Part shown: positions 5,716 through 40,083 of the stretch, in pieces
How the letters are laid out: each line of letters begins with the position of its first letter
Position numbering within the stretch: the stretch's first letter is position 1
Source: Spirochaetia bacterium
GTDB lineage: Bacteria; Spirochaetota; Spirochaetia; SZUA-6; Bin103
Assembly (NCBI GenBank): GCA_965203055.1
Contig: OZ241863.1
Coordinates: forward strand, 1,408,001 to 1,472,000
DNA length: 64,000 nt
Direction of reading: 5' to 3'
The notes under the pieces: generated by a model
Databases searched by the model: none
Seen by the model: the letters and a program-made list of their open reading frames with translations, nothing else
What the model was told of the DNA's origin: nothing
Translations under genes and position numbers: made by a program

Positions 5716-6764
5716 GGCCCGGCCCGCACTACGACCGGCGTGGTCCGGGCGCGGGTCACGCGTCCCACGACCGCGGCCAGCGCCCCGTGCGCGGCCAGCA
5801 CCCGGCGCACCGCATCCAGCAGGGGCGCGGCAGCGCAGAGCAGGAGCCCGCCGCTGGTCTGGGCATCGGCGAACAGCACGCGGCTGGCCTCCGGGCACGT
5901 CCCCCAGTCCACCACCGCGGCCGCGGCCGCCAGATTGTCGGCGCTGCCGCCGGGAACGCAGCCGTCCGCGATCAGGCCGGGCAGCGCGGCGTCGATGGTT
6001 GGCACGCGGTCGTACCACAACTCCGCGCCGCAGCGGCTGGACGCGCACAGGTCGGCGAGATGGCCGGTAAGGCCGAAGCCGGTGACGTCGGTGCCCGCGG
6101 TTACGCCCGCGGCCGCCAACTCGGGACCCGCGCTATTGAGACGAACCATGGAACGGACCGCCCGTTCCACCGCCGCCGCGCCGGCGCGGCCCTGCTTCAG
6201 GGCCGTGGTGACGATCCCGGTACCCAGCGGCTTGGTGAGCACGAGGTAGTCTCCCGCCCGCGCCGCCGCCTTGGTCAGCAGGCGCTCCGGCCGCACCAAC
6301 CCGGTGACGGCCAGGCCGTACACCGGTTCGGGGTTGCGCACCGTGTGCCCGCCGATGGTGACCGCGCCGGCCGCATGCACCGCATCGGCGCCGCCGCGCA
6401 GGATCTCCGCCGCCACCGCCGCCGGCACCTTCTGCGGCGGGTAGCCGAGGATGTTGAGGGCAGTCAACGGACGGCCCCCCATGGCGTACACGTCGGAGAG
6501 GGCATTGGCGGCGGCGATGCGGCCATAGGTATAGCCGTCGTCGACTATCGGCGTGAAGAAGTCCACGGTCTGCACCAGGGCGCGGTCGGCGTCCAGCCGG
6601 TAGACGCCGGCATCGTCGCCGGCCGCGGAGCTCACGATGACGTTGGGATGATCGAACGCCGGAAGCTGGCCCAGGACCTGCGCCAGTGCCTGCTGGCTGA
6701 GCTTGGACGCTCACCCGGCGCAGGAGGACAACGCCGTGAGTTGGAAGATATCCTCGCGAGTCAA
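5712..6764 (-). CDS. selD: Selenophosphate synthetase SelD, a selenoprotein (in-frame UGA = Sec18 at 6713-6711)
   Basis: SD AGGAGGTGA precedes TTG at 6764. Reads MTREDIFQLTALSSCAG-UGA-ASKLSQ and continues in frame into DDAGVY, TVDFFTPIVDD, ANALSDVYAMGG, TDVTGFGL and DAQTSGGLL. Confidence 0.93.
6670..6710 (-). promoter_or_regulatory. Candidate bacterial SECIS hairpin just 3' of the selD UGA
   Basis: After UGA the mRNA can fold GCCAG-CAGGCA-CTGGC starting 13 nt downstream, or alternatively CTGGC-G-CAG-GTC-CTG-G-GCCAG. Folded by eye only. Confidence 0.45.
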
Positions 6765-14468: not shown

Positions 14469-17400
14469 CTAGCGCGCGGTTACGTAGACCTGAGTAAACT
14501 CCACCGGGCCGCCGAGGGAGCGCAACGCAACGCGGTCTCCTGCGGTGATCGCCGCGCCGACGTTCAGCCTGAGCTGTTCCTCTCCGCCTACCAGGAGGGT
14601 AACCGTGCCGTCGCTCTGGTAGAGCGCTTCCAGCGTCAGCGGCGAGTTCAGCGACTGTTCGATACGCCTGCTGGCAAGCCAGGCCAACGTGTTGTTGTCA
14701 CTCGACTCGTAGAACTGCAGGTGGGTCGCGTCCGTGTCGTAGAACGGATCCCGCGTCGCCCAGATCAGGTAGGAACGACCATAGTTCCAGGTATTCGCGG
14801 TATCCGGCGTATCGGAGGCGAGCAGGTGCAGGCCGAAGCCAACCTTGTCGCTCCCGGAAGGAGCGCTGGCGGTAACCCCGAACAGCATCTCCGACCCCGA
14901 CTGCGCCGCGGGTATCGTGTACTTCGCGTGGCTGGCGCCGGAGTCGGTTTGAGTCACCGTCGCGCCGCTCTCACTCCACGCACCCTCGTTCGCCAGCGCC
15001 TGCCCGTCGGTAAATCCGTTCACCAGGTAGGTGCCGCCGGTAATCAACTTGTCCCGCTGCAGTTCGGCGACGGTCCTGACCGCCCATCCGTTGTTCCGCA
15101 CGGCTACGTCGTCGATGCCGCCCTCGGCGTCGAACGTCAAGGTCAGCGTGTGCGCAAGGCCCTGGATGCCGACGTTCGACAACACCAGAGCATCGCCAAC
15201 GACTTCGATTTCCGCAGCATCCATGGTTACGGAGTCGGTGAACATGTCGTCGGCGCTGTCGAACAGCGCTTCCACCTTGCCCATGCCGCCTTGTTCGTAG
15301 CTCACCCGCACCGATACGTCTCGTCCGGCGTACTGCACTCCGGAGATGTAGATCGAGTTGGGGCCGGCGATGTTGAGCCGAGCGGACTCCAGATCGAGGA
15401 GCCCCAGATTGAGGCCCACCAACGGGACGCCCTCATCGGCCTCCGCCATCGCAGCGTCGGCCGCGTCCATTGTCATCGCAGCCGCGGCCTCGGCTGCCAT
15501 CGCCCGTTCGAGGGCCGCGTCAGCTTCCGCCCGCGCGGCTGCCGCTTCGGCCTCGGCCGCTTGCGCCCGTTCCAGGGCCGCCGCAGCTTCCGCCCGTGCG
15601 GTTTGCGCGGCGGTCGGCGGCAGGGTGACGCGGCGGATGTTGGTGACCCGCAACTGGTCGCCGCCGGCGTACTCCAACGTGCCGGAGTAGCCGACGCCGC
15701 CAACTTCGACGTTGGAGACCGCCAGCGACGCCGGGGCCACGAATTCGACCGTGGTCTGCGCCAACCCCACGGAGTCGGGGATCAGCTTGCCCATCTGGCC
15801 GTAGACCGCTTCCACGGTAGCGGAGGTGCCGCCGGTGTACTTGAGCAGTGCCGAGTAGGGCATGCCGTCGTACATGATGTTGGAGAGATAGATGGCGTCG
15901 GGACCGGCCAGAGTTACCCGCACCTGATCGACGTTGGCGCGGTTCGCATCGAGCATTTCGGCGAAGACCATCACCTGGGAAGGTTGATGGGCAGCCGCCA
16001 TCATCGCGTCGACCTGGGCCTGAGCGGCCTTCGCCTCGGCTGCCGATGCCTGCGAGGACGCCTTGGCGACCTTCACGTCCGCCGCTGCCGCCTCGGCATC
16101 CGCCATCGCTGATTGGGCGTCTGCCATGGCCGCTTCGGCTTTCGCCTGGGCAGCGCTTACTGCCGCGGCCGCGTCGGCTTGCGCCTTGGCGATGGCTGCC
16201 GCAGCTTCCGCCTGCGCGGTTTCCGCGGCGGTCGGCGGCAAGGTGACCCGGCGGATGTCGGTGACCCGCAACTGGTCGCCGCCGGCATACTCCAACGTGC
16301 CGGAGTAGCCGACGCCGCCAACTTCTACGTTGGAGACCGCCAGTGCGGCCGGGGCCACGAATTCCACCGTAGTCTGCGCCAACCCCACGGAGTCGGGGAT
16401 CAGCTTGCCCATCTGGCCGTAGACCGCTTCCACGGTAGCGGAGGTGCCGCCGGTGTACTTGAGCAGTGCCGAATAGGGCATGCCGTCGTACATGATGTTG
16501 GAGAGATAGATGGCGTCGGGACCGGCCAGAGTTACCCGCACCTGATCGAGATTGGCGCGGTTCGCATCGAGCATTTCGGCGAAGACCATCACCTGGGAAG
16601 GCTGATGGCCAGCCGCCATCATCGCGTCGACCTTGGCCTGCGCGGCCGCGGCCTCGGCTGCCGATGCCGCGGCGGCTGCCTGAGCGGCCTGAGCATCGGC
16701 CATCGCAGCTTCAGCATCGGCCATTGCCGCCTCGGCTTCCGCCTGAGCCATGCTCACCGCCGCGGCGGCGTCGGCTTGCGCCTTGGCGACGGCCGCGTCA
16801 GCTTCCGCCCGCGCCGCTTCCGCGGCGGACGGCGGCAGGGCGACCCGGCGGATGTTGGTGACCCGCAACTGGTCGCCGCCGGCATATTCCAACGTGCCGG
16901 AGTAGCCGACGCCGCCAACTTCGACGTTGGAGACCGCCAGCGACGCCGGGGCCACGAATTCGACCGTGGTCTGCGCCAACCCCACGGAGTCGGGGATCAG
17001 CTTGCCCATCTGGCCGTAGACCGCTTCCACGGTAGCGGAAGTGCCGCCGGTGTACCTGAGCAGTGCCGAATAGGGCATGCCGTCGTACATGATGTTGGAG
17101 AGGTAGATGGCGTCGGGACCGGCCAGAGTTACCCGCACCTGATCGAGATTGGCGCGGCTCGCATCGAGCATCTCGGCGAAGACCATCACCTGGGAAGGCT
17201 GATGGCCGGCCGCCATCATCGCGTCGACCTTGGCCTGCGCCGCCGCAGCGTCGGCTGCGGCCGCATCTGCGGCCGCCATTGCCGCCTCGGCATCGGCCAT
17301 CGCCGACTGGGCGTCTGCCATGGCCGTCTCGGCTTCCGCCTGAGCCATGCTTACCGCCGCCGCGGCGTCGGCTTGCGCCTTGGCGACGGCCGCCGCGGCT

Positions 17401-20096
17401 TCGGCCTTCGCGCTTTCCGATTCGGTCGGCGGCAGGGTGACGCGGCGGATGTTGGTGACCCGCAACTGGTCGCCGCCGGCGTACTCCAACGTCCCGGAGT
17501 AGCCGACGCCGCCAACTTCGACGTTGGAGACCGCCAGCGACGCCGGGGCCACGAATTCGACCGTGGTCTGCGCCAACCCCACGGAGTCGGGGATCAGCTT
17601 GCCCATCTGGCCGTAGACCGCTTCCACGGTAGCGGAGGTGCCGCCGGTGTACTTGAGCCGCGCCGAGTAGGGCATGCCGTCGTACATGATATTGGAGAGG
17701 TAGATGGAGTCGGGACCGGCCAGCGAGACGCGCACCTGGTCGAGGTTGGCGCGGCTCGGATCAAGCATCTCGGCGAAGACCATCACCTGGGAAGGCTGAT
17801 GGTCAGCCGCCATCATCGCGTCGACCCTGGCCTGCGCGGCCGCAACCTCCGCGGAGGACGCCTCCGCCTTGGCGTGGGCTGCGGAGACCTCCGCCCGGGC
17901 GGCCGAAGCCTCGGCCCGGGCATCGGCCAGCTCCGCTTCAAGAGCGGCGATCCGTTCGAGATGTTCGGCGATCGTCGTCTTCAGCGACTCGTTTTCAGCC
18001 CGCGCCTCGTCCGCCGCGGTCGGCGGCAGGGTGACGCGGCGGATGTTGGTGACCCGCAACTGGTCGCCGCCGGCGTACTCCAACCTCCCGGAGTAACCGA
18101 CCCCGCCGACCTCGACGTTGGAGACCGCCAGCGTGGCCGGGGCCATGAAGTCCAATTCGGTCTGCGCCAACCCCACGGAGTCGGGAATCAGCTTGCCCAT
18201 CGGGCCGTAGACCGCTTCCACGGTGGCGGAGGTGCCGCCGGTGTACCTGAGCAACGCGGAGTAGGGCACGCCGCCGTACATGATGTTGGAGAGGTAGATG
18301 GCGTCGGGACCGGCCAGCGAGACCTGCACCTGGTCGAGGTTGGCGAGGCTCGGATCGAGCATTTCGGCGGAGACCATCACCTGGGAAGGCTGATGGTCAG
18401 CCGCCATCATCGCGTCCATCCTGGCCTGCGCGGCCGCAGTCTCGGCGGCCGATGCCCCGGCAGCCGCTTGGGCGGCCTGAACGTCGGCCATAGCCGCTTC
18501 GGCATCCGCCATGGCGGCCTGGGCGTCTGCCATAGCCGCCTCGGCTTCCGCCCGGGCGGCGCTTACCGCCGCGGCCGCGTCGGCTTCCGCCTTGGCGATG
18601 GCTGCCGCGGCTCGTTCCGCGGCGGTCGGCGGCAGGGTGACGCGGCGGATGTTGGTGACCTGCAACTGGTCGCCGCCGGCGTACTCCAGCGTGCCGGAGT
18701 AACCGACGCCGCCGACCTCGACGTTGGAGACCGCCAGCGCGGCCGGCGCCATGAAGTCCAACTCGGTCTGCGCCAACCCCACGGAGTCGGGAATCAGCTT
18801 GCCCATCGGGCCGTAGACCGCTTCCACGGTAGCGGTGGTGCCGCCGGAGTACCTGAGCAGCGCGGAGTAGGGCACGCCGCCGTACATGATGTTGGAGAGG
18901 TAGATGGCATCGGGACCGGCCAGAGAAACCTGCACCTGGTCGAGATTGGCGAGGCTCGGATCGAGCATTTCGGCGGAAACCATCACCTGGGAAGGCTGAT
19001 GGTCAGCCGCCATCATCGCGTCGACCTTGGCTTGCGCGGCCGCAGCCTCCGCTGCCGATGCCTGGGCGGCCGCCTGGGCGGTCTGAGCATCGGCCATGGC
19101 CGTTTCAGTCTCTGCCATGGCGGTTTCAGCCTGCGCCATGGCGGCATCGGCCGCAGCTTGGGCGGCGGCCAATTCGGCTTCGAGCGCGGCTATCCGCGTG
19201 GCCTGCGCAGGGGGCAGCGTGGCGCGGCGGATTCCGGCTACCTGCAGCCGGTTGCCGCCGACGTACTGAAGTTCACCCGAGTAGCCAGCGCCGCCAACGT
19301 CCACGTTGGAGACCACGAGCCGGTTCGGCGCGAGGAAGGTCAGTTCCGTCATGCCCAGGTTTACGGAATCGGGAATCAGCTTGCCGTCGTGCCCGAAGAT
19401 TCCCTCCACCGAAGCGGTGGTGCCGCCCTGGTACTTCAGCAGGGCCGAATAGGTCTCGCCGCCGTACCGGATGGATGAGATGTAGATCGAGTCCGGACCG
19501 GCAAGGGAGGCCTGCGCCTCATCGAAGTCGAGCAGGCCGACGTCGAGCATGTCGGCCGAGACCATCACCGCGGAAGGATGATGGGCCGCCATCATCATGG
19601 CGTCGACCTTGGCCATTGCTTCAGCCTCGGCCGCGCGCGCCTGGGCAGCGTCCTGTTGCGCGGCGGTAGCGTCCGCCTGCGCCTGAGCGGCGTCCTGCTG
19701 CGCCGCGGCGACGTCCGCGCGCGCCCGCGCCGCGTCCTGCTGGGCAGCCTCGGCGTCCGCGCGCGCCTGCGCCGCATCAGCCTGCGCCGCGGCGGTTGCC
19801 GCCTGCGCTTCGCTCAGGGCGCCCTCCGCGGCCTCGGCCGCGGCTTTCGCGGTGGCCGCTTCGGAGGCGGCCGCGTCCAGTTCGGCTCGCGTAGGGGGAG
19901 TCTCGTCGGAAGGGGCGCTCAGCGTCGCGCACGCTGTCGCCATGACCGCGCATGCCGATACTAGGAGCATGCGCAGGCCCCGGAGCGGCCGCCGAGGGCG
20001 AACCGGAGTGAGAGACGAGGGATCGGGGTAGAGCTGCCGAGCTGTCGCGAACGAGCTTGCAGTGAGCGTTTCCATGTCGAGACTTATACTGTGCAT
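14469..20096 (-). CDS. Large (1875 aa) repetitive putative lipoprotein: eight beta-rich domains separated by Ala-rich helical linkers, plus a C-terminal beta domain
   Basis: SD GGAGGAG precedes ATG 20096. Basic then hydrophobic N-terminus ends in a lipobox-like MATAC. Tandem ~200-aa units; terminator downstream. Confidence 0.8.
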   Translation of the reverse strand: MHSISLDMETLTASSFATARQLYPDPSSLTPVRPRRPLRGLRMLLVSACAVMATACATLSAPSDETPPTRAELDAAASEAATAKAAAEAAEGALSEAQAATAAAQADAAQARADAEAAQQDAARARADVAAAQQDAAQAQADATAAQQDAAQARAAEAEAMAKVDAMMMAAHHPSAVMVSADMLDVGLLDFDEAQASLAGPDSIYISSIRYGGETYSALLKYQGGTTASVEGIFGHDGKLIPDSVNLGMTELTFLAPNRLVVSNVDVGGAGYSGELQYVGGNRLQVAGIRRATLPPAQATRIAALEAELAAAQAAADAAMAQAETAMAETETAMADAQTAQAAAQASAAEAAAAQAKVDAMMAADHQPSQVMVSAEMLDPSLANLDQVQVSLAGPDAIYLSNIMYGGVPYSALLRYSGGTTATVEAVYGPMGKLIPDSVGLAQTELDFMAPAALAVSNVEVGGVGYSGTLEYAGGDQLQVTNIRRVTLPPTAAERAAAAIAKAEADAAAAVSAARAEAEAAMADAQAAMADAEAAMADVQAAQAAAGASAAETAAAQARMDAMMAADHQPSQVMVSAEMLDPSLANLDQVQVSLAGPDAIYLSNIMYGGVPYSALLRYTGGTSATVEAVYGPMGKLIPDSVGLAQTELDFMAPATLAVSNVEVGGVGYSGRLEYAGGDQLRVTNIRRVTLPPTAADEARAENESLKTTIAEHLERIAALEAELADARAEASAARAEVSAAHAKAEASSAEVAAAQARVDAMMAADHQPSQVMVFAEMLDPSRANLDQVRVSLAGPDSIYLSNIMYDGMPYSARLKYTGGTSATVEAVYGQMGKLIPDSVGLAQTTVEFVAPASLAVSNVEVGGVGYSGTLEYAGGDQLRVTNIRRVTLPPTESESAKAEAAAAVAKAQADAAAAVSMAQAEAETAMADAQSAMADAEAAMAAADAAAADAAAAQAKVDAMMAAGHQPSQVMVFAEMLDASRANLDQVRVTLAGPDAIYLSNIMYDGMPYSALLRYTGGTSATVEAVYGQMGKLIPDSVGLAQTTVEFVAPASLAVSNVEVGGVGYSGTLEYAGGDQLRVTNIRRVALPPSAAEAARAEADAAVAKAQADAAAAVSMAQAEAEAAMADAEAAMADAQAAQAAAAASAAEAAAAQAKVDAMMAAGHQPSQVMVFAEMLDANRANLDQVRVTLAGPDAIYLSNIMYDGMPYSALLKYTGGTSATVEAVYGQMGKLIPDSVGLAQTTVEFVAPAALAVSNVEVGGVGYSGTLEYAGGDQLRVTDIRRVTLPPTAAETAQAEAAAAIAKAQADAAAAVSAAQAKAEAAMADAQSAMADAEAAAADVKVAKASSQASAAEAKAAQAQVDAMMAAAHQPSQVMVFAEMLDANRANVDQVRVTLAGPDAIYLSNIMYDGMPYSALLKYTGGTSATVEAVYGQMGKLIPDSVGLAQTTVEFVAPASLAVSNVEVGGVGYSGTLEYAGGDQLRVTNIRRVTLPPTAAQTARAEAAAALERAQAAEAEAAAARAEADAALERAMAAEAAAAMTMDAADAAMAEADEGVPLVGLNLGLLDLESARLNIAGPNSIYISGVQYAGRDVSVRVSYEQGGMGKVEALFDSADDMFTDSVTMDAAEIEVVGDALVLSNVGIQGLAHTLTLTFDAEGGIDDVAVRNNGWAVRTVAELQRDKLITGGTYLVNGFTDGQALANEGAWSESGATVTQTDSGASHAKYTIPAAQSGSEMLFGVTASAPSGSDKVGFGLHLLASDTPDTANTWNYGRSYLIWATRDPFYDTDATHLQFYESSDNNTLAWLASRRIEQSLNSPLTLEALYQSDGTVTLLVGGEEQLRLNVGAAITAGDRVALRSLGGPVEFTQVYVTAR
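15600..19600 (-). repeat. Seven ~600-bp intragenic repeats (an eighth, degenerate copy lies at ~15100-15430)
   Basis: Near-identical blocks encoding HQPSQVMV...IRRVTLPPT recur near 19570, 18990, 18385, 17790, 17195, 16595 and 15980. Confidence 0.9.
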
Positions 20097-20112
20097 TACT
20101 CCTCCTCCGCAA

Positions 20113-20141
20113 AGTATGACGCGCGCCCATCGTCGGCGCAA
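20113..20141 (-). promoter_or_regulatory. Putative sigma70 promoter of the lipoprotein gene
   Basis: TTGCGC-17 nt-CATACT immediately upstream of the SD. Confidence 0.5.
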
Positions 20142-20270
20142 CAAGCCGCGCGCAATTTCGGAGAGTTGCCGGACCCACGCCAAGCTTGCCTGATCGCACC
20201 GGCAGGCTGCACCCGGTCAAACGGTGGCAGCACGCCCGGCGGCACGGTCGCCCGTCGAGATCCCGGCGCT

Positions 20271-20681: not shown

Positions 20682-21740
20682 CTACTTCGAGATGAGCTCC
20701 AACTCGAACACGAGAAATGAATTCGGAGGAATTACCCCGGGCACGCCGCGGCTCCCGTAGGCCAGTTCCGGCGGAATGATCACGGTGCGTCGTTCCCCCT
20801 CGACCATGTCCAGCAACGCTTCATTCATGCCCGGGATGAGATCGCCGATGGTGAACTGCGCCGCGTCGCCGCGCGAGTGGGAACTGTCGAACACGCTGCC
20901 GTCGAGCAGCTTGCCGGTGTAGTGCACGGTGACGCTCTGACCCGACTGCGGCTTGTCGGCGCCGCTGCCGGCCGCGGTGACCACGTAGCGCAAGCCTGAG
21001 TCGGTGGCCGCCGCCTCCGGCCAAGTGGCGGCGATGATCTCTTCGGCCGCGGCGCGTTCCAAGGCCGCGGCGCGTTGCGACTGGCCCCCGGTCTGCTCCA
21101 GCAGCGCGTCGAAGCGCGCCTGATCGACGGCGTAGGCCTCGGCCGCGGCGCCGATGCGGAGGATGTTGATTTCCTCCATCACGTCGCCCTGGCCCACCGC
21201 GTCCACCACCTCCTGGCCGTGGACCACGCGCCCGAACACCGTATGGTTGCCATCCAGCCAGGGAGTGGCCTTGTGGGTAATGAAGAACTGGCTGCCGTTG
21301 GTATTGGGGCCGGAGTTGGCCATCGACAGCACGCCGGGACCGTCGTGCTTCAACTCCGCGACGATCTCGTCCGGGAACTGGTAGCCGGGGCCGCCGCTGC
21401 CGTTGCCGCGCGGATCTCCCCCCTGGATCATGAAGTCGTCGATGACGCGATGGAACTTGAGGCCGTCGTAGAACCGTTCCGCGTTGCGGTGGCGGTACTG
21501 AATGGTGCCTTCCGCCAGCCCGACGAAGTTGGCGACGGTCAACGGCACCCGCTCATACTCGAGGCGCAGATAGATGGCGCCGTGTCTGGTCTTCAGCTCC
21601 GCATAGAGGCCGTCGTCCAATTCAGGACGCGGCTGCTCTCCGGCGGCGTCGCCGGCGGCGCAAGCGGCGACTGCGAGCGCGGCGCCGAGCGGCAGCAGCG
21701 ACCACCCGCCCCGGGAGCGTGCGCGATGGGCCTGTCTCAT
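20682..21740 (-). CDS. Peptidyl-prolyl isomerase, cyclophilin-FKBP fusion, with lipoprotein-like signal
   Basis: Cyclophilin motifs [33 protein letters not shown] and HTVFG; FKBP motifs [16 protein letters not shown] and [14 protein letters not shown] lipobox-like. Confidence 0.93.
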
Positions 21741-21968
21741 GACCACGTGAATGTATTGCAGCGCTGCCGCGGGCTCAACCCCGCCGGCGGCGGGAGTTCC
21801 GGACCGCGCGGCGACGGCGCGCCGGTCTGCGATGGCTGCCTGCCGCATAAGTGTTTGCGGCAGCGGCGCGGATCTGCGATAGTGGCGTCAGGCTGGCTAC
21901 TTCTTCATGCCACTTCTTCATGGCAGGCACCGGAGATGAGGGGAGCGACGACCGGCAGATCCTTGTTG

Positions 21969-24900
21969 ATGGCACGCATTTTGCGGGGGGGGGGGGGGGG
22001 GGCTCGAGAAATTACCCGGCGGCAGTGCCGCCGCGGCGGCGCTGGTCGCGCTGCTGAGCCTGGCGCCCCCGGCCGCCGCGCAATCTCCCGCGCTCTCCTT
22101 CGGCTCGGCGGCGGTGGAGAGCAAGCTCTACGATACCGGCACCGCCATCACTCCCATCGTGCTGCCGGAAGCGACCGGCGGCGCCGGGACCCTGAGCTAC
22201 ACGCTTTCGCCGGCCACGCTGCCGCGCGGCCTGACCTGGACCGCCTCGACCCGCACCATCGCGGGGACGCCCACCGCGGTCACCGCCGCCACCACCTACA
22301 CCTGGCAGGCGACGGACGGCGATGGAGACCGCGCCACCCTGACCTTCTCGTTGCGGGTCTGGGCACCCGCCGGGCCGGCGGTCGACGGGACCAGCGTGCG
22401 CCTGGAGACCGTGAACGGGCGCACCAAGTACAACTACTGGCCCGGCGAGACGATCTGGTTCCTGGTCCAGTATCCTGAGAAGGTAGCGGTCACCGGGACG
22501 CCGCAGGTCACGCTGGTCGTCGGCGACCGGACGCGCAAGGCCGATTACAGCGCCGCCGACACGGCCTGGTTGCGGTTGGCGACGAACGACGACCCCTACG
22601 ATCTGCTGATCTTCACCTACACGGTGCGGGCGGACGACTTCGACGGCGACGGCGTCGCGGTCCCGGCGGACGCGCTGAGCCTGAACGGCGGGACCATCCG
22701 GGCGGTGGACGGCGGCGCCGACGCCAAGCTCAGCCTGGGAACGCACGCGGTCGCCAGCGGCGACGCGACCAGCGTCCAGATGCGGGTGCGCGATACGGCG
22801 CCTGCCTTCTCGCAGTCGGCGAGCGCCGCCAACCGGTCGTTCGCGCTCAACGCGGCGACCTCCACCACGCTGCCCCGGGCCACCGGCGACGGCGCGCTGA
22901 CCTACGCCGTCAGCCCGGCGCTGCCGCGCGGCCTCTCGCTGGCGAGCGCCAGCCCGAAGATCACCGGCACGCCCCGGGTTGCGGGCGCGACCACGCACAC
23001 GCTGACGGCGACCGACGCCGACGGCGACCGCACGGCGCTCGGGCCATTCACCATCACGGTGGCGGCGGCCAGCGCGCCGAAGCCGAGCGCGCTGACCCTC
23101 AGTCCTCCGCCGGGCTTCGACGGCGACTACGCCGCCGGCGAGGTGATCCGGGCCTTCGTCTCGTTCGACAAGGGCGTCACGGTCACCGGCGCGCCGCGGC
23201 TGGCGCTCACCATCGGCGCCAACACCCGCCAAGCGTCGTACCACGCCGCCGGCAGCGACTCGGACGACCTCTCGTTCCGCTACACCGTGACCTCCTCGGA
23301 CTTCGACGGCGACGGCATCAGCATCGGCGACGCCGCGCTGACCCTGAACGGCGGCGCCATCGTCGGCACCGCGGCCGGCGCCGCAGCCGCGGCGCTGGAC
23401 CTCAGCGGCTACGCCGTCGCCAACGCCGCCGGGCACACGGTGCGCGATACGCAGCCATCCTTCGGGAGCGCCTCGGTGTCCGCCCGGAACTACCCCAAGA
23501 ACGCCGCGGTGGACGAATCGCTGCCGGCGGCCACCGGCGGCGACGGCACCCTGCGCTACACCTTGCAGCCGGCGCTGCCGCGCGGCCTCTCCTTCGACCC
23601 GGCCGGCCGCCGCATCCACGGCACTCCTTCCGTCCGCGCCCCGCCCGCCACCTACACCTACCGGGCAACCGACGGCGACGGTGACGCGGCCGCGCTGACC
23701 TTCCTGCTGGCGGTGACCGACGTCCCGGCGGTGAGCGCGGTGCGCGTCAGCTCCAGCCCGGCGAGCGGCGACGCCTACGGCGCGCTGGAGACCATCAGCG
23801 TGGAGGTGCGGTTCGACCAGGCGGTGACGGTCACCGCGCCCAACCCCAGCCTGGCGCTCACCGTCGGCGCCCGCACCCGCAGCGCGGCCTTCGCCGGCAA
23901 GCCGAACGCGAGCACCTTGCGCTTCAGCTACCGGGTGCAGGCCTCCGACGATGACGACGACGGCATCGGCGTCGCCGCCGGCGCGCTCACGCTGAACGGC
24001 GCCGGCAAGCTGCGCGACGCGACCGGCACCCGCGACGCGGCGCTCGCGCTCGGCACCCACGCCATCGCCAACGCGGCGGGCCACCAGGTCGACACGCCGC
24101 CGAAGATCTCCGGCGTCGCCATCACCTCCCGGCCGACGAACGGCAACTACGCCGCCGGCGACGTGATCGCGGCGCGCCTCACCTTTACCGAGTCGGTGTT
24201 CGTGCGCCGCAATCCGCCGACGGTGGCGCTCACCATCGGCGCCAACCCCCGCACCGCGACGTGGCACGGCGGCCCCAGCATCGGCGGCCCGAACACCCAC
24301 ACCTTCGCCTATACCGTGCAGTCGTCGGACTTCGACGGCGACGGCATCAGCATCGCCGCCGGCGCGGTGACCGCCAACAGCGGCTTCCTGGCCCATAGCC
24401 GCGATGATCCGAACCGGCGCGCGCTGGTCGGCCTGGGCAGCCACGCCATCGCCAACGACGCGAACCACCGCGTGCGCGACACCGCGCCGACCTTCGCCTC
24501 CGCGGTCGCCGCGCAGCACTACGTGGCCGGCGCCGCGGCGTCGCTGACGCTGCCCGCGGCCACCGGCGACGGCGCCATATCGTACCAACTGACCGGCGCG
24601 CTGCCGGGCGGGCTGATCTACCACAGCGCCGACCGCCGGATCAGCGGCACGCCGCAAGCGGCCGCCGCCGCCAGCGCGCAGACCTGGGTCGCCACCGACG
24701 CCGACGGCGACGCGACGGCGCTCACCTTCACCATCACCGTGGCCGCGGCCGGCGCGCCGAAGGTATCGGCGCTGACCTTCCTGTCGACGCCGCGGCGCGG
24801 CGCCACCTATGCCGTCGGCGAGACGATCGTGGCGGGCATCAAGTTCGACAAGAGCGTCACCATGACCGGTTCGCCGCGGCTGGCGTTGTCGATCGGCGGC

Positions 24901-27900
24901 GTGACGCGCTACGCGACCCTTTTCAGCCGGCCGTCGCGAGTCACGCGGTGGCACCATCCGTTCACCTACACGGTGCGGAGCGTCGACCGCGACACCGACG
25001 GGATCAGCATCGGCGCCAGCGCGCTGTCGCTGAACGGCGGCAGCATCGTGCGGTCGAACGACGCGAGCGTCGCCGCCTCGCTGGCGCTCGGCAGCTTCGC
25101 GGTCGCCAACGCCGCCGGCCACAAGGTGGACGGCGGCACCAACCAACCGCCCGCGGTGCGCTCGGTCAGCGTCGACTCCTGGCCGGTGGCGAGCGCCGGC
25201 TACGCCGCCGGCGACGTGATCCGCCTCAACGTCGGATTCTCGGAGCCGCTGGTGGTGACCGGGTCCCCGCGCCTGGCGCTCGGCATCGGCACGAACACGC
25301 GCCAGGCGGCCTTCGACCGCGCCGCGCACAAGCAGCTCTACTTCCGCTACACGGTGCAGGTCTCCGACCACGACGCCGACGGCATCAGCGTCGCCGCGAA
25401 CGCCCTGACCCTGCCGGACGGCGCCGCGGTGCGGGACGCCGCCGGCGCCGACGCTGCGCTCGGGCTCGGCTCCCGCGCGCTCTCCAACCTGTCGGCGCAC
25501 AAGGTCAGCACCCCGCCCAAGGTCACCGGGCTGGCGATCGTCTCCAAGCCGCAGCAGGCCGGCACCTACACCCGCGGCGGCGTCATCACCGCCCGGGTGA
25601 CCTTCGATCAGAGCGTCACCGTGACCGGCAGCCCCGCGCTCGCCCTCACCATCGGCGCCGATACCCGCGCGGCGACCGCCGCGGCCGGCAGCGGCAACGC
25701 GTACCTCGACTTCAGCTACACCGTGGCCGCGGCGGACGCGGACGCCGACGGCCTCGGCATCACCGGGGCGGCGCTGACGCTGCCGAGCGGCGCGGCCATC
25801 CGGGATGCCGACGGCGCCGGCGCCGTCCTGGATCTCGGCAGCTACGCCGCAACCCGCTTCGCCAACGCCAAGGTGGACGGGAGCAAGACCGGCCTCTGGC
25901 CGGACTTCGGCGCCGCCGCCGGCCCCGACCTGTCGATCGGCAAGAACGTCACCGTGACCTACCTGCTCGACCCGGCCTGCGGCCCGGTGCCGGTCGGGTG
26001 CTCCCTGGCCGCCTCGCACACCGGCGACGCGCCGCTGGCCTACACCGTCTCGCCGCCGCTGCCGAGCGGCCTGAACCTGTACCGCGGCACCGCGGTCCTG
26101 GTCGGCGCCGCAACGGTGGCATCGCCTTCCACCAGGTACACGCTGACGGTGAGGGACGCCAACGGCGACACCGACACCCTGACCTTCACCCTGGCGGTGA
26201 CCGGCGACCGCCCGACGGTCCACGGCGTGAGCTTCCGGTCCAGCCCGGCCGCGGCGAGCACCTATGGCCGCGGCGAGGAGATCCGGGTGGCGGTCCGCTT
26301 CCGGCGGCAGGGCGGCGGCGCCCTGGCGGTCACTGGGTCGCCCCGCCTGGCGCTCCGGATCGGCAGCGTGACCCGGCAGGCCGCCTATTACGGCGTCAGC
26401 GGCGACGGCGTGCTGTTCCGCTACGCCGTGCAGGCGGCGGACCGCGACGCCGACGGCGTCTCCATCGCCGCCGGCGCCCTGACCCTGAACGGCGGCGCAA
26501 TCCGCGACCGCGCCGGCAACGCGGCGCTGCTCGGCCTTGGCCGCCACCGCGTCGCCAACCACGCGTCGCACAAGGTGGACGGCGGCATCAGGCGCGCGCC
26601 GAGCGTGACCGGCGTGACCATCTCCACCTCGCCCGCCGCGGGCGACACCTACAGCCGCGGCGAGGCGATCGAGGTCGCGGTTCGCTTCAGCCAGGGCGTG
26701 GGAGTGACCGGCACGCCGCGGCTCGCGCTCGGCATCGGCAGCGCCGCCCGCTACGCGAACTACGACCGCGCGGGCGCTACCTCGGCGACGCAGTACTTCC
26801 GCTACGTGGTGCAGCAGGCCGACGTGGACGCCGACGGCCTCAGCATCGGGACCGGCGCCCTGACCCTGAACGGCGGCGCCATCCGCAACAACCAGGGCAC
26901 CAACGCGGCGCTCGGCCTGGGCCGCCATGCCATCAGCAACGCCGCCAACGCCAAGGTGAACGGCGCCGTCAACTCGCCGGCGATCGTGACCGGCGTGGCG
27001 ATCACGTCGCGCCCGGCGAAGGGCGACACCTTCCGTCTGGGCGAGGAGATCCGGGTGCGGGTTACCTTCAGCAAGGCGGTGGTGGCGAGCCGGCGCACCT
27101 ACCGGCAGGGGAACCCGGGCTACCCGCGGCTGGCGCTCACCGTCGGCAGCCGGACGCACCGCGCCGCGCTGCAGACCAGCGTCCAATGGGGCTCGCAGCC
27201 AGCCAGCACCACCCTCGCCTTCCACTACACGGTGCAGGCCGGCGACTACGACGGCGACGGCCTCGGCATCGCGGCGGCCGCGCTCGACGCCAACCTCGGC
27301 AGCATCCGGCACGGCGGCGTGGACGCCAACCTGAGCCTTGGCCGCCACGCCGTCGCCGCCGCGGCGTTCAAGGTGGACGGCCGCCGGCCGAGCGTGTCCG
27401 GGGTGAGCATCACGTCGCGGCCCGGCGCCGGCGACACCTACGCGGCGGGCGAGGTGATCCACGTGGCGATCACGTTCGACATGCCGGTCCGGGTCCCGGT
27501 CGGGCCCTACCCCGGCGGCAGTCCCACGCTGGCCCTCGCCGTCGGCCGCAACACGCGGCAGATGACCTACACCGGCAGCGGCGCCAGCGCCATCGGGTTT
27601 CGCTACGCGGTGCAGGCCGGCGACCGCGACCCGGACGGGGTCAGCGTCGTCACCCGCGGCGGGCTGGACCTGAAGGGCCTGGCGATCACGGCCGCGGCCA
27701 GCGGCAACCCGGCGGTGACCGACCTCAGCGGCTTCACCGGCCACGGCGGAGCCGGCCAGAAGGTGGACGGCGCCGCACGGCCGCCGGTGGTGAGAACCCT
27801 GGTGATGAGCAGCCCGCAGCGCGGTTCCACCTTCGACCGTCACGAGGAGATCGGCATCAACGTCCGGTTCAGCCAGGACCTGACGGTGACCGGCACCCCG

Positions 27901-30900
27901 CAGTTGTCCCTGGTCATCGGCTCCCGGACGAAGACCCTGAACATGGCGCGATCGTTCGGGTCCTACCTCCGGTTCGTATATGAGGTGCAGGCCGGCGACG
28001 CGGACGCCGACGGGGTGGTGGTGCCGGCCAACTCGCTGGCGTTGAACGGCGGCACCATCCGCAACCGGCACGGGGTGGACGCGGCGCTGGGCCACCTGAT
28101 CTACCGGCCTCCGCTGAACGTCGACGGCGCGGCGAATCATCCGCCGGTGGCGATCCGGGCGGGGTTCGCGGGCCGCCCGATCGGGGGCGTGTACGGCAGG
28201 GGCGACATGATCGACGTGGTGGTCAACTGGGGTAAGCGCGTCACCGTGACCGGCACGCCGCAGCTCGCCCTCGACATCGGCGCCGGGACCCGGCAGGCAG
28301 CGCTGCAAAGCGGGAATCAGCTCTACAGCCGGTTCCGCTACGTGGTCCAATCGGGCGACCTCGACAACGACGGCATCGGCTTCGGCAGCGGCGCGCTGAC
28401 CCTGAACGGCGGTTCGATCAGCGGTCCGGGCGGCACCACCGCCAACCTGACGCTGCCGGCCGCGGCGACCGACGCCAATCGGCGCGTGGACGGGCGGATC
28501 CTGCCGCAGCCGGCCTTCACCGGATCGGTGACGGCGCGGACCTGGACCGTCGGCTCCAGCGTCAGCTACGCGCTGCCGGCCGCCACCGGCGCCCGGGGGA
28601 CCATCGGCTACGCGATGCGGCAGCGGCTGCCGGACGGCCTTGAGTTCTCCGCCGCGTCGCGGACCATCACCGGCACGCCCACTACCGTGACGCCGCGCGC
28701 CACCTACACGCTGCAGGCCACCGACAGCGCGACCAACGCCAAGGGCACGCTGGACTTCTCCATCGAGATCACGCCGAACGCCGCCCCGGTGTTCATCCCC
28801 GCCACCTTCGACGCGCAGGTCTACGTCAAGGACGCACCGATCGCCCCGGTCGCGCTGCCGGCCGCCACCGGCGGCAACGCGCCGCTGAGCTACGCGCTGA
28901 CCGGGCCGGGCGCCGCGGCCACCCTGACCCTGCCCGACGGCATCTCCTGGACCCGGCCCTCCGGCACGAACACCGGCGGCACCCTCTCCGGCACGCCGAC
29001 CGCGGTGGCCGCCCAGGCGACCTACACGCTGACCGCCACCGACGCGGACGACGACGCGGCCACGCTCACCTTCACCCTGGAGGTGCAGGACGACGCAACG
29101 CCTGACTTCGGCACCGCCACCATCGCCAACCAGTCGTGGAAGCGGTACCGGGCGATGACCGCGTTCACGCTGCCGGCCGCCACCGGCGGCAACGGCAGCC
29201 TGTCCTACGCGCTCTCCCCGGACCTGCCGACCGGCGTGACCTACGACACCGCCCACCGGGTCAACGGCACGCCGAGCGTGGCCCTGGCGGCGACCTCCTA
29301 CACCTGGACCGCCACCGACGCCGACGGCGACACCGCGGCGCTGACGTTCACCATCACGGTGGCGGACAACAGCCTGCCGGCATTCCAGGTCCTCGCCCCG
29401 AAGGACCGCGTGTATACGCGGTACAAGCAGGCGGGCGGCACGCTGCCGCCGGCGATCGGCGGCGACGCCCCGTTGACCTACACGTTGTCGCGCGCCCTGC
29501 CGGCCGGCATGGCGCGCAGCGCCAGTCCGGGCAGGACCCCCGGCGGACCACCGGTCGACACCGCCAACCGCAGCTACGCCGGCGCGCCCACCGCGGCCAT
29601 GTCCAAGACCTCGTACGCCTGGACGGTTACCGACGCGGACGGCGACCAGGCGGTGTGGGACTTCACCCTCACGGTGTTGGACAATGGCGCGCCCGACTTC
29701 GGCGCCGCGGCGGTGGCGGATCAGTCGTGGATCCGGCGCCGGACGATCACGGCGTTCACGTTGCCGGCGGCCACCGGCGGCGACGGGAGCGTGTCCTATG
29801 CCCTCTCTCCGGCCCTGCCGGCCGGGGTGGCGAAGGACGCCGGCCACCGGGTGAGCGGCGCGCCGGACGCGGCGCTGGCGCGAACCGAATATACCTGGAC
29901 GGCCACCGACGGAGACGGGGATCAGGACTCGCTGACCTTCTACGTGACCGTGGCGGATCGGCCGGCGGCGGCGCTGGTGCTGACGCCGGCGACCATCGAC
30001 GAGAGCGGGACCGGCAATGCGACGACGGTGACCGCGACGCTGGACAAGGCGGCGAGCGCGGCGACCACGGTGACGGTCTCGGCGGCGGCGGGAACCAACG
30101 CCGAGGCGGGCGACTTCACGTTGAGCACGGCGAAGACGCTGACCATCGCGGCGGGCGCGACCACCAGCACCGGGGCGGTGACGATCACTGCGGTGGACAA
30201 TGCGGACGCGGAGCCGGACAAGTCGGTCACCGTGTCGGGGAGCGTGGACAACGACGACGTGGCCGCCCCGGCCGCGGTGACGTTGACGATCGCCGACGAC
30301 GACCGCCCGTCCACGCCGACGCTGTACGTCGATTCGCCCAAGGTCGCCGAGGGCGGGCCGGGCGATCCCTCGCAGTCGAACTCGCTGACCTGGACGGTGA
30401 CGCTGGCGCCGGCGAGCGACCAGGAGGTGAGGGTCTCGATCGCGCTCGACCAGGAGGCCGGCACGGCGACGGCGGGGACCTACCAGCGAGCCGCGGAGGG
30501 AGCGGACCACGGATTTCCGTCCACGCCGCAACTGGTGTTCCCGCCCGGGGAGACCAGCCGGAAGATAAAGGTGTCGGTGCACGGCGACTCGACGGCGGAG
30601 CCGGACGAGACGGTGGTGCTGGCGCTGAGCGGCCCGGTCAACGCGGCGCTGGACGCCACCTCCGCGACCGGCACGATCCTCGACGACGATACGCCTGCGG
30701 TGACGCTGGCGGTGACCGACTCGTCGATCGCGGAGGACGGCGGCACGACGACGGTGACCGCCACGCTCAGCCACGCGTCGAGCGCGGCGACGACGATCAC
30801 GGTGACGGCGGTGACGGGCGCCTACACGGTGGGGACGGACGCGACGATCGAGATCGCGGCGGGAACGACGGCGAACGCGGCGGACACGGTGACGATCACG

Positions 30901-33900: not shown

Positions 33901-36900
33901 CTGACGGTGACTGCGGCGGCCGGGACGAACGCAGTGGCGGGCGACTTCAGCCTGTCGAGCACGAAGACGTTGAGCATCGCCGCCGGGGCGACCAGCAGCA
34001 CCGGTACGGTGACGGTGACAGCGGTGGACAACGCGGTCGACGCGCCGGACAAGGAAGTGACGGTAACGGCGGCGGTGAGCGGGGACAGCGGAATAGCGGC
34101 CCCCGCGAGCGTGACGCTGACGATCGAGGACGATGAAGCAGCGCCGGGGGTGACGCTGGCGGTGGCGGACAGCGCGATCGCCGAGAACGGCGGGACGACA
34201 ACGGTGACCGCCACGCTGAGCCATGCGTCGAGCGCGGCGACGACGATCACGGTACAGCCGGTGACAGGCGCCTACACGGTGGAGACGGACGCGACGATCG
34301 AGATCGCAGCAGGAGAAACGGTGAACGCTGCGGACACGGTGACGATCACGGCCGTGAACGACGCGATCGACAACGTGGGCGACCGGTCGGTGACGGTGAG
34401 CGGAACGGCGCAGAACAGCCAGGGCGCCGGGACGGTGACGGGAGCGAGCCTCACCCTCACCGACGACGAGGCGACGCCGACGGCGACGCTGGCGCTGAGC
34501 GCTGAGACGATCGACGAGCACGACGGGACGAATCCGGGGAAGGCGACGGTGACGGCGAGTCTGGACCGAGCGTCGAGCGAGGCGGTGACGCTGACGGTGG
34601 CTGCGGCGGCGGGAACGAACGCGGCGGCGGGCGACTTCAGCCTGTCGAGCACGAAGACGTTGAGCATCGCCGCCGGAGCGACCAGCAGCACCGGCACGGT
34701 GACGGTGACGGCGGTCGATGACATGACGGACGCGCCGGACAAGGAAGTGACGGTAACGGCGGCGGTGAGCGGGGACAGCGGAATAGCGGCCCCGGCGGCG
34801 CAGACGCTGACGATCAAGGACGACGAAGCGGCGCCGGGGGTGACATTGGCGCTGGCCGACAGCGCGATCGCCGAGAACGGCGGAACGACGACGGTGACGG
34901 CGACGCTCTCGCATGCATCGAGCGCGGCGACGACGATCACGGTACAGCCGGTGACGGGCGCCTACACGGTCGGCGAGGACGCGACGATCACGATCGCGGC
35001 GGGAGAGACGGCGAACGCGTCGGACACGGTGACGATCACCGCCGTGAACGACGCGATCGACAACGTGGGCAACCGCACGGCGACGGTGAGCGGGACGGTG
35101 CAGAACAGCCAGGGCGTAGGAACGGTGACCGGAGCAAGCCTCAACCTCACGGACGACGAGGCGACGCCGACGGCGACGCTGGCGCTGAGCCCTGAGACGA
35201 TCGACGAGCACGACGGGACGAATCCGGGGAAGACGACGGTGACGGCGAGTCTGAACCGAGCGTCGAGCGAGGCGGTGACGCTGACGGTGGCTGCGGCGGC
35301 GGGGACGAACGCGGCGGCGGGCGACTTCAGCCTGTCGAGCACGAAGACGCTGAGCTTCGCCGCCGGAGCGACGACGAGCACCGGCACGGTGACGGTGACG
35401 GCGGTCGATGACACGACGGACGCGCCGGACAAGGAAGTGACGGTATCGGCGGCGATAAGCGGGGACAGCGGGATAGCGGCTCCGGCGAGCGTGACGCTGA
35501 CGATCGAGGACGACGAAGCGGCGCCTGGGGTGACGCTGGCGGTGGCCGACAGCGCGATCGCCGAGAACGGCGGAACGACGACGGTGACGGCGACGCTCTC
35601 GCATGCATCGAGCGCGGCGACGACGATCACGGTACAGCCGGTGACGGGCGCCTACACCGTGGGGTCAGACGCGACGATCGAGATCGCGGCGGGAGAGACG
35701 GCGAACGAGGCGGACAGCGTGACGATCACGACGGTGAACGACGCGATCAACAACCTCGGCGGCCCGACGGTGACGGTGGGCGGGACGGCGCAGAACAGCC
35801 ATGGCGTGCAGCCGGTGACGGGAGCGAGGCTCGCCCTCACGGGGAAGCTGTTGCTGGATCGTGAGACGGGCGGAGCGGCGCCTGGGGTGACGCTGGCGGT
35901 GGCGGACAGCGCGATCGCCGAGAACGGCGGGTCCACCACGGTGACCGCCACGCTCAGCCACGCATCGAGCGCGGCGACGACGATCACGGTGACGGCGGTG
36001 ACGGGTGCCTACACCGTGGGGTCAGACGCGACGATCGAGATCGCGGCGGGAGAGACGGCGAACGCGGCGGACACGGCGACGATCACGGCGGTGAACGACG
36101 CGATCGACAACGTGGGCAACCGGTCGGTAACGGTGAGCGGAACGGCGCAGAACAGTCAGGGCGTAGGAACCGTGACCGGAGCGAGCCTCACCCTCACGGA
36201 CGACGAGGGAGCGCCGACGGCGACGCTGGCGCTGAGCCCCGAGACGATCGACGAGCACGACGGGACGAATCCGGGGAAGGCGACGGTGACGGCGACGTTG
36301 AACCGGGCGTCGAGCGAGGCGGTGACGCTGACGGTGGCCGCAGCGGCCGGTACGAACGCAGTGGCGGACGACTTCACGCTGTCGAGCACGACGACGCTGA
36401 GCATCGCCGCCGGAGCGACGAGGAGCACCGGCACGGTGACGGTGACGGCGGTCGATGACACGACGGACGCGCCGGACAAGGAAGTGACGGTAACGGCAAC
36501 GGTGAGCGGGGACAGCGGGATAGCGGCCCCCGCGGCGCAGACGCTGACGATCGAAGACGACGAAGCGGCGCCCGGGGTGACGCTGGCGGTGGCCGACAGC
36601 GCGATCGACGAGAACGGCGGAACGACGACGGTGACCGCCACGCTGAGCCACGCATCGAGCGCGGCGACCACCATCACGGTGGCCGCGGTCGACGGCGCCT
36701 ACACGGTGGGGACGGACGCGACGATCGAGATCGCGGCAGGAGAGACGGCGAACGCGGCCGACACGGCGACGATCGCGGCGGTGGACGACGCGATCGACAA
36801 CACGGTCAACCGGTCGGCGACGGTGAGCGGGACGGCGCAGAACAGCCAGGGCGTGGGGACGGTGACCGGAGCGAGTCTCACCCTCACGGACGACGAGGGA

Positions 36901-39900: not shown

Positions 39901-40083
39901 GCGGCGGGGCTGGTGACGCTCTACGGCGGGCTGACGCAGGGGCAGCCGGACAGCGCCGGCTACCGGGTGGGCAGCCGTCTGGAGTTGGGCGGGCTGAGTA
40001 TGGATCTGGCGCTGGACCGGCAGGAGAACCCCGGCGCCGACCCGGCCCACGGCCTCAGGCTGGAGGGCCAATTGCACTGGTGA
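21969..40083 (+). CDS. Giant (~6000 aa) autotransporter-like surface adhesin, frameshifted at a G18 tract in the signal-peptide region (continuous ORF 22114-40083)
   Basis: Signal peptide AAAAALVALLSLAPPAAA-Q lies in the ORF frame but has no start codon; ATGs at 21936 and 21969 are one base out of frame. Contains putative-Ig, Calx-beta and 230-aa repeats, and a C-terminal beta-barrel ending LEGQLHW. Confidence 0.85.
21985..22002 (+). repeat. Poly-G homopolymer (G18), candidate slipped-strand switch
   Basis: 18 consecutive G, beginning in the sixth codon from ATG 21969. Confidence 0.9.
30691..37575 (+). repeat. 690-bp (230-aa) tandem repeat array in the adhesin stalk
   Basis: Units start at 30691, 31381, 32071, 32761, 33451, 34141 and 34831; a half unit at 35521; then 35878, 36568 and a final half unit at 37258. 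Confidence 0.92.

Follow-up and report, generated by a model that had tools for sequence, protein, structure and literature searches.

Phase variation through homopolymeric tracts is textbook knowledge for a few pathogens and is hardly documented in uncultured bacteria. The Campylobacter tracts comprise ≈8–13 G, and those of the meningococcal proteins NalP and MspA are much shorter than the run of 18 G (G18) described here. This run lies at the 5′ end of an 18-kb gene for a giant surface protein in a 64,000-nt stretch of a Spirochaetia genome (contig OZ241863.1, positions 1,408,001 to 1,472,000; called the window throughout). The original prediction, made from the letters of the window, proposed a phase-variation switch in the OFF state that controls the export of this putative adhesin.

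The meningococcal autotransporters NalP and MspA are switched by homopolymeric tracts in their coding sequence. They resemble the window locus, whose product is probably of the same type, in being autotransporter-type surface proteins with a 5′ coding G/C homopolymer whose length modulo three sets ON or OFF (PMC3723659), a switching that is predicted here. They are proteases of ≈1,000 aa, whereas the protein in the window has ≈6,000 aa with He_PIG and Calx-beta repeats and a barrel that scores below threshold. The poly-G tracts of Treponema pallidum, also a spirochaete, are found 5′ at outer-membrane protein genes (tprE, tprG, tprJ, tprL and tp0126). They vary within isolates and change expression with their length, and open reading frames (ORFs) had been misannotated through the run, with the signal peptide lying behind it (PMC7864442). 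As described there, these tracts have 7–11 G, with ≤8 G permissive, and belong to sigma-70-type promoters upstream of the transcript (PMC7864442), whereas the window has G18 (13–27 bases in relatives), no canonical start behind the tract and a sigma-54-like motif adjoining it. Campylobacter shares the stochastic switching of surface genes by G homopolymers and has autotransporter genes with such tracts (PMC7168839, PMC6321876), but its genome is AT-rich so that G runs stand out, while the window has 70% GC and far longer runs. The inlA gene of Listeria monocytogenes encodes an adhesin/invasin and has a 5′ homopolymer with early truncation and high-frequency reversion. It differs in belonging to a Gram-positive species and in having a short stretch of A's, and the general 5′ bias described in the same source concerns A/T and not G/C runs (PMC2831843). 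Our literature searches returned nothing relevant on phase variation in sponge symbionts, and no description of a phase-variable homopolymer system in spirochaete symbionts. Slipped-strand switching at homopolymers is already known, and judged by its sequence the present locus is a well-supported candidate for it. It stands apart from the known systems by the length of its tract, by how large its protein is and which domains it has, by its host, an uncultured spirochaete of high GC, and by the repeated occurrence of such runs in a gene family of metagenome-assembled genomes (MAGs) labelled as several phyla.

The reading we favour, with a probability of about 0.5, is that G18 is a hypermutable slipped-strand contingency switch of a giant Sec-exported, probably autotransporter-type adhesin. 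Ribosomes would initiate at ATG 21936 or ATG 21969, ahead of the tract, and read it as a short poly-glycine in the n-region of the signal peptide, followed by the hydrophobic core and an AxA-Q cleavage site. When replication adds or removes G's, which we infer to happen within the population, the 18-kb frame would move into and out of register and expression would be switched. At G18 no canonical start would reach the signal peptide, and if the gene is OFF no protein would be made at all, so that more than export would be controlled. If the runs are real switches, the surface protein of ≈600 kDa would be made by part of the population only, which would matter for attachment and for avoiding recognition. 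Gene callers would then systematically mis-start or split such genes, and each apparent frameshift in a long-read MAG would have to be judged as either biological or an error.

Apart from G18 the longest homopolymers of the window are one C7 and eight runs of 6, a gap that makes G18 more than chance. Upstream, TGA 21967 closes the giant frame (position modulo 3 = 1), in which GTG 22114 is the first ATG, GTG or TTG with an open path; from there the frame encodes 5989 aa up to the stop at 40083 (6038 codons from stop to stop). A census of these three codons from 130 nt before the tract to the core of the signal peptide returned none in the giant frame with an open path, and none of them lies between the tract and the hydrophobic core. 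ATG 21936 and ATG 21969 would join the giant frame only with one G fewer or two more (G17 or G20). Five further upstream GTG and TTG codons have the same offset as these two, and the remaining frame has an ATG of its own at 21920. All candidate starts lie upstream of the tract and the signal-peptide core lies downstream. Nothing but the tract stands between start codons and an otherwise intact 18-kb frame, so a change in tract length would alter how they are joined in frame. The original prediction had named the G18 beside the giant ORF, the frame without a start between TGA 21967 and GTG 22114, the rescue of both ATGs at G17 or G20, and a signal peptide behind the tract that ends before QSP. 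All four were borne out, the signal peptide reading LEKLPGGSAAAAALVALLSLAPPAAA followed by QSP in the giant frame.

The hydrophobic region and the AxA-Q site are conserved, by inspection, in the orthologues P0021, P0024, P0025, P0027, P0249, L001, L013 and L014. P0021, P0024, P0025 and P0027 (≈74% identical) have MRR, a hydrophobic core and AxA-QS, and the orthologue signal peptides align with window ...AAAAALVALLSLAPPAAA followed by QSP. Because the orthologues begin with normal Sec signal peptides, the start should lie at or before the tract. GTG 22114 was ruled out as the native start since it sits behind the signal peptide that the orthologues keep. A protein search for near-identical N-terminal fragments in other samples gave none with ≥95% identity among the 120 matches listed, the best of these being P0249 (86%) and P0245 (84%).

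A scan of genome contigs identified at least 21 homologous loci (L001–L021) on 18 contigs, all of them MAG records. P0015, P0016 and P0249 are known from protein only, and tract lengths elsewhere are calls of the assembly consensus. An alignment of the DNA of seven 5′ regions (the window, L001, L013, L014, L005, L012 and L009) has a G run at one position, which is GGGG in the paralogues L005 and L012 and GGG in L009. The upstream ATG (six of seven copies; ACG in L005) and a block [A/T]TGG[C/T]ACG-N4-TTG are also conserved. The comparison of tract length among related genomes, recommended with the original prediction, gave assembly calls of 15, 18, 23 and 27 at the aligned site, and such a difference at a homologous position is the signature of a contingency locus.

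The paralogues have ORFs that continue without a break from the homologous ATGs to the mature protein. The homologue of ATG 21936 opens those of L012 (MKRH...; MKRHVVGQPMVRSLSRGWPAPLL...) and L009 (MKRR...; MKRRVTGTT...), and ATG 21969 is homologous to the start of L005 (MARSLCKGWPAPLL...). Since these ORFs are continuous, the region upstream of the tract is translated in relatives that have no long tract, and ATG 21936 is likely the ancestral start of the family. P0015 and P0016 cross the tract in two frames, both different from that of the window, and the starts annotated in relatives fall into three frames. Homologous starts are in frame in L013 and P0015, P0016 uses the third frame, and the window, L001 and L014 have a common offset from the homologous [A/T]TG GCA CG start. 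A tract that is translated is modestly favoured over one in a promoter or leader, because the paralogue ORFs are continuous, P0015 is in frame, the upstream ATG is conserved, and the window and P0015 have no start behind the tract. The features of the window and the runs in its relatives are collected in Table 1.

Table 1. Features of the window, tract-bearing relatives and 5′ architectures with long G/C runs (positions refer to the window unless a relative is named).
Feature	Position or loci	Strand	Run	Remarks
G18 homopolymer, candidate slip-prone switch	21985–22002	+	G18	sequence; homopolymer census
TGA closing the giant frame upstream	21967–21969	+		sequence
Upstream ATG, likely ancestral family start	21936–21938	+		peptide MRGATTGRSLLMARILR...; one base out of the giant frame
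Second ATG (MARILR)	21969–21971	+		offset 1 like ATG 21936; overlaps the sigma-54-like motif
Sigma-54-like motif TGGCACGCATTTTGC	21970–21984	+		perfect TGGCAC-N5-TTGC match, directly abutting the tract
Rest of the signal-peptide coding region, giant frame (LEKLPGGSAAAAALVALLSLAPPAAA)	22003–22080	+		predicted cleavage before Q at 22081
Mature giant surface protein, ≈6,000 aa	22081–40083	+		He_PIG and Calx-beta repeats; probable C-terminal outer-membrane barrel
Divergent neighbour, cyclophilin and FKBP peptidyl-prolyl isomerase	20682–21848	−		Pfam
1904-aa ORF	14469–20183	−		GC content at third codon positions (GC3) 0.83; downstream of the isomerase, same strand
Selenocysteine cluster (SelB, SelA, SelD-like AIRS protein)	2318–6710	−		beside sulfatase and arylsulfotransferase (1–2317)
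Relative L001			G15	97.9% DNA identity over 8,240 bp from window 21923; in-frame GTG (5962) from the last tract G
Relative L013			G27	71% identity to the window; in-frame TTG 5875 and 5887, upstream of the tract
Relative L014			G23	71% identity to the window; in-frame TTG 5872, upstream of the tract
Relative P0015			six Gly	97% identity; annotated MRGATTGRSLLMARILRGGGGGGTRESPGGS..., in frame from the ATG-21936 position
Relative P0016			five Gly	98% identity; annotated MAGTGDEGSDERQVLVDGTHFAGGGGGVLENHP..., from the ATG-21920 frame
Type A	window, L001, L013, L014		poly-G	short equivalent GGGG/GGG in L005, L012, L009
Type B	L015		C26	interrupted equivalent C6TC5 in L011
Type C	L016, L017		C24, C20	≈215 nt before GTG; short equivalent: none seen
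Type D	L021, L002		C21, C13	short equivalent C6 in L003, same place
Type E	L007, L019		G18 each	short equivalent: none seen

Bacteria seldom have homopolymers longer than 10; according to PMC9262707, a density above one per 100 kb was found in just 18 of 1,598 genera. We counted G/C runs of ≥10 in 341,233 nt, comprising the window and the 21 loci listed, and found 13, of which 11 lie within 400 nt upstream of the predicted cleavage site of a giant gene and two elsewhere. Counted by gene, 11 of 22 giant genes have such a run, or 10 of 21 without the window, which was picked for its tract, and the 5′ runs are 13–27 bases long. At the pooled rate the 5′ clustering has a Poisson P of ≈1e-13, a value that overstates independence as the loci are related by descent. 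For this reason the 5′ architecture is the honest counting unit, and at least five unrelated architectures carry runs (types A–E). An A/T-rich −10-like box follows the run directly in types B, D and E, the bases right after it being TAAAAAT in L007, TAAAAT in L019, TCGTAAAT in L021 and GAAAAAAT in L015. At the protein level, runs of five or more G or P occur in the first 150 residues of 8 of the 120 long homologues listed.

We tentatively propose, at odds somewhat below even, that long G/C runs of 13–27 nt, well above the 7–13 known from classic pathogens, are a recurrent and selected 5′ feature of a family of giant autotransporter-like adhesins across MAGs labelled as several phyla. The gene may move horizontally together with its switch, which would have in-frame and promoter modes, the in-frame mode perhaps coupled to sigma-54. 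Contingency loci would in that case be a general tool of non-pathogenic environmental and host-associated bacteria, visible since long reads assemble such runs.

Some further features of the runs were observed. In G orientation a T-rich patch lies 2–8 nt before most tracts (window, L001, L007, L013, L015, L016, L019, L020, L021 and L011), for example CATTTTGC, GATTTTGT, AATTTCGT, AATTTTC and the reverse complement of GAAAAAAT. Right after the C21 of L021 (3830–3856) there is a perfect 9-bp inverted repeat, GTAAATCGC-N9-GCGATTTAC, followed by GAGAGG and ATG. Long runs away from the starts of giant genes are C28 in L009 (3806–3833) and G32 in L020 (1509–1540). Each lies at the 3′ end of a minus-strand gene, whose product would end in a poly-Gly or poly-Pro tail.

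Several points weigh against a tract that is translated and switches the frame. Neither upstream ATG has a well-spaced Shine-Dalgarno sequence, GGAG directly abutting ATG 21936. Most of the differences between the window and L001 from the upstream ATG to the tract change the amino acid, and purifying selection on the upstream peptide is thus not apparent. In L001 a start codon is formed with the last G of the tract, P0016 has V after its glycines (GGGGG-V-LENHP), and P0249 starts with an ATG (MSRSGARREGIPGG...) placed between the tract position and the hydrophobic core. The runs of types B–E lie upstream of the start codon, often beside a −10-like A/T box. If the sigma-54-type motif at ATG 21969 is a promoter, both ATGs would be upstream of the transcript. 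Finally, every tract length is an assembly consensus in a range (runs ≥10) that is error-prone, and the tract-bearing records look like long-read MAG chromosomes, for which a shared technical bias is possible. A comparison of synonymous substitutions between the window and P0016 in the frame of ATG 21936 was dropped, as one of the two differences is synonymous and the other is not.

The switch could instead act on transcription or initiation. The tract would then be part of a promoter or leader, translation would begin at or behind it, and the ATGs upstream would stay untranslated. We regard this reading as doubtful, though a real possibility. The promoter might be of the sigma-54 type with its −12 element abutting the tract, or it might resemble those of T. 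pallidum or porA, with the run next to the −10. The stretch ATGGCACGCATTTTGC contains a perfect copy of TGGCAC-N5-TTGC, which we take to be the sigma-54 −24/−12 consensus. It is the sole match with 0–1 mismatches on both strands of the 64 kb, and a scan for sigma-70-like promoters between 21650 and 22150 gave 0 sites. L013, L014 and L009 carry the motif without a mismatch and L001 and L005 with one (TTGT), while the N5 spacer varies. In addition, the rare codons GCA and TTG are invariant even though the gene has a GC3 of 0.93. Besides the A/T boxes behind the non-coding runs of L007, L019, L021 and L015, the precedent of T. pallidum fits this explanation, its poly-G tracts lying in promoters, the tprL transcription start 4 nt behind the run and the ORFs drawn through the tract being wrong (PMC7864442).

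The likeness to a sigma-54 promoter, perfect as TGGCACG-N4-TTGC at 21970–21984, has its limits. TGGCACG and TTG are kept in six of seven aligned copies, L012 having TGGTAC, and the near-invariant −12 C is T in three of seven. The motif doubles as conserved codons (M-A-R-x-L), which makes its reading ambiguous. In paralogues with continuous ORFs these 15 bases code for the N-terminus M-A-R-S-L, and ATG 21969, which overlaps the motif, need not be a start codon. We know of no sigma-54 promoter with a homopolymer directly after its −12 element. No Sigma54_activat domain or other enhancer-binding-protein gene was found among the window ORFs scanned. With a start behind the tract, L013 and L014 would have signal peptides of 14–19 residues lacking a charged n-region, and the window and P0015 have no canonical start between tract and core, which would leave the window gene startless in a way that slippage does not reverse. 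A structured RNA or riboswitch in the leader was rejected for 21930–22110 (fold z = +0.28; 121 of 200 shuffles fold as well), and Rfam gave 0 matches at E ≤ 1 within 21500–22500.

In either layout the tract would most simply be a hypermutable expression switch, and as assembled neither layout would give a product with a signal peptide. The phase-variation claim of the original prediction is supported in part, by the tract, the frames, the varying homologous lengths and the family recurrence. Starts at or behind the tract in some relatives suggest that it may act on transcription or initiation and not on the frame.

The frameshift itself might be an assembly artefact, the true modal length being in frame and the gene simply expressed with a poly-Gly stretch and no OFF state, which we consider unlikely. 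Long-read consensus is described as reliable only below ≈11 bases, with runs of ≥10 probably remaining problematic (PMC9262707). P0015 and L013 are in frame from their homologous starts, and the window is the only one of the four type A loci that lacks a usable in-frame start. The other homopolymers of the window, proposed at the outset as an error control, speak against an artefact. They are up to 7 bases long and cause no frame breaks, 8 of the 9 runs ≥6 lying inside uninterrupted high-GC3 frames and one outside. The assembly is thus free of general homopolymer frameshifting, which says nothing on the accuracy of an 18-mer. Tracts of 15–27 G that differ by non-multiples of three among close relatives are moreover a hallmark of instability, and an artefact would remove the OFF state but not the switch. 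Of the claimed OFF state it holds that the frame is broken as assembled, while the term covers the assembled state only, an 18-mer being beyond reliable consensus. A population with a tract this long is expected to be mixed, and the assembled length would at best be its mode; in the favoured reading G18 would be the true majority state.

Slippage of RNA polymerase or ribosomal frameshifting might also restore the frame in a fraction of the products, so that the tract would throttle expression and not switch it. This seems improbable to us. An 18-mer is longer than the RNA–DNA hybrid, and the common offset of the window, L001 and L014 fits such a mechanism. Bacterial transcription is known to slip on long mononucleotide runs (PMC1088944, PMC5009743), but the bacterial cases documented in the first of these sources are A/T runs (PMC1088944). 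The offset is furthermore not uniform among the relatives, as L013, P0015 and P0016 do not share it, and the 5′ region has no special RNA structure.

Very improbable, in our view, is a run that serves as a structural DNA element (G-quadruplex or i-motif), or one left behind by recombination at the 5′ edge of a mobile gene, with no switching at all. All G-strand runs have ≥15 bases, which we take to be enough for a three-tetrad quadruplex, and two further runs lie at the 3′ ends of unrelated genes. The run of L002 is only C13, however, and its orthologue L003 has C6 in the same place. No other sequence that could form such an element would slip as readily as a pure homopolymer, and 11 of 13 runs are tied to a gene start. 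Recombination is suggested by the homology between the window (21923–30150) and L001 (5886–14124), which begins ≈62 nt before the tract while the flanks upstream are unrelated. This pattern suggests that the gene was transferred, that recombination took place at its 5′ edge, or that a chimera was assembled across a long gene common to both. A direct repeat of 13 nt in tandem (21899–21924; ACTTCTTCATGCC and ACTTCTTCATGGC, 12 of 13 bases identical) is found exactly where the homology to L001 begins.

The composition of the locus is also uneven in relatives. In genomes of lower GC the giant gene has a GC3 of 0.86–0.93 against 0.41–0.65 in flanking ORFs (L002, L016), and GC content is 0.47–0.59 upstream versus 0.64–0.73 within the gene (L002, L003, L007, L016, L019, L021). 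A giant gene that looks compositionally foreign, in MAGs labelled as different phyla, points to horizontal spread or to mis-joined contigs. The peptidyl-prolyl isomerase, 1904-aa protein, amidohydrolase, downstream protein and FliG of the window had no match in the 21 loci listed, and none of the matches listed for the upstream flanks of L001–L003 was to the window.

Pfam assigns many He_PIG (E 1.6e-40) and Calx-beta (E 3.5e-34) domains to the giant protein, and NCBIfam gave sub-threshold fragments only. Decay to a pseudogene was rejected because the frame of 6038 codons is intact, free of internal stops and has a GC3 of 0.93. The last 400 aa match the Autotransporter family PF03797 below threshold (E 7.4e-5, 23.1 bits against a cut-off of 26, profile positions 1–90 of 255). 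The protein ends in ...LEGQLHW, the last residue of the homologues retrieved with the C-terminal part is mostly W, F or Y, and PF03797 is listed for some homologues in precomputed domain lists. A single-sequence AlphaFold model of the C-terminus was unusable for the barrel (predicted local distance difference test, pLDDT, 30.7), and a sequence search of the PDB with this part gave chance-level matches only. Together with the signal peptide these features suggest that the protein is probably a Sec-dependent type-V surface adhesin with a putative barrel. The only tandem repeat found in the gene is one 357-bp array (35517–36199), irrelevant to the switch. P0068 is a 7037-aa paralogue whose C-terminal 400 aa are 98.75% identical to the window gene while the N-terminal region is only 44% identical, and its N-terminus (…VGALLARGGSG…) reads the region of the conserved 15-mer in yet another frame.

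The divergent isomerase gene probably starts at the in-frame ATG 21740, from which a lipoprotein-type signal is read. With this start, the giant gene may be preceded by an intergenic region of ≈195 nt and not 90–120 nt. The 1904-aa ORF downstream of it matches no Pfam family, and its NCBIfam matches are at chance level only. Other genes of the window encode FliG, a V-type ATPase operon, an amidohydrolase and sulfatases. The best named relatives of the V-type ATPase A subunit are MAG proteins of Spirochaetaceae and Spirochaetales (93% and 71% identity). Elsewhere in the window there are a Fic protein, an Ada-type methyltransferase, a type I restriction S subunit and a BrnA antitoxin.

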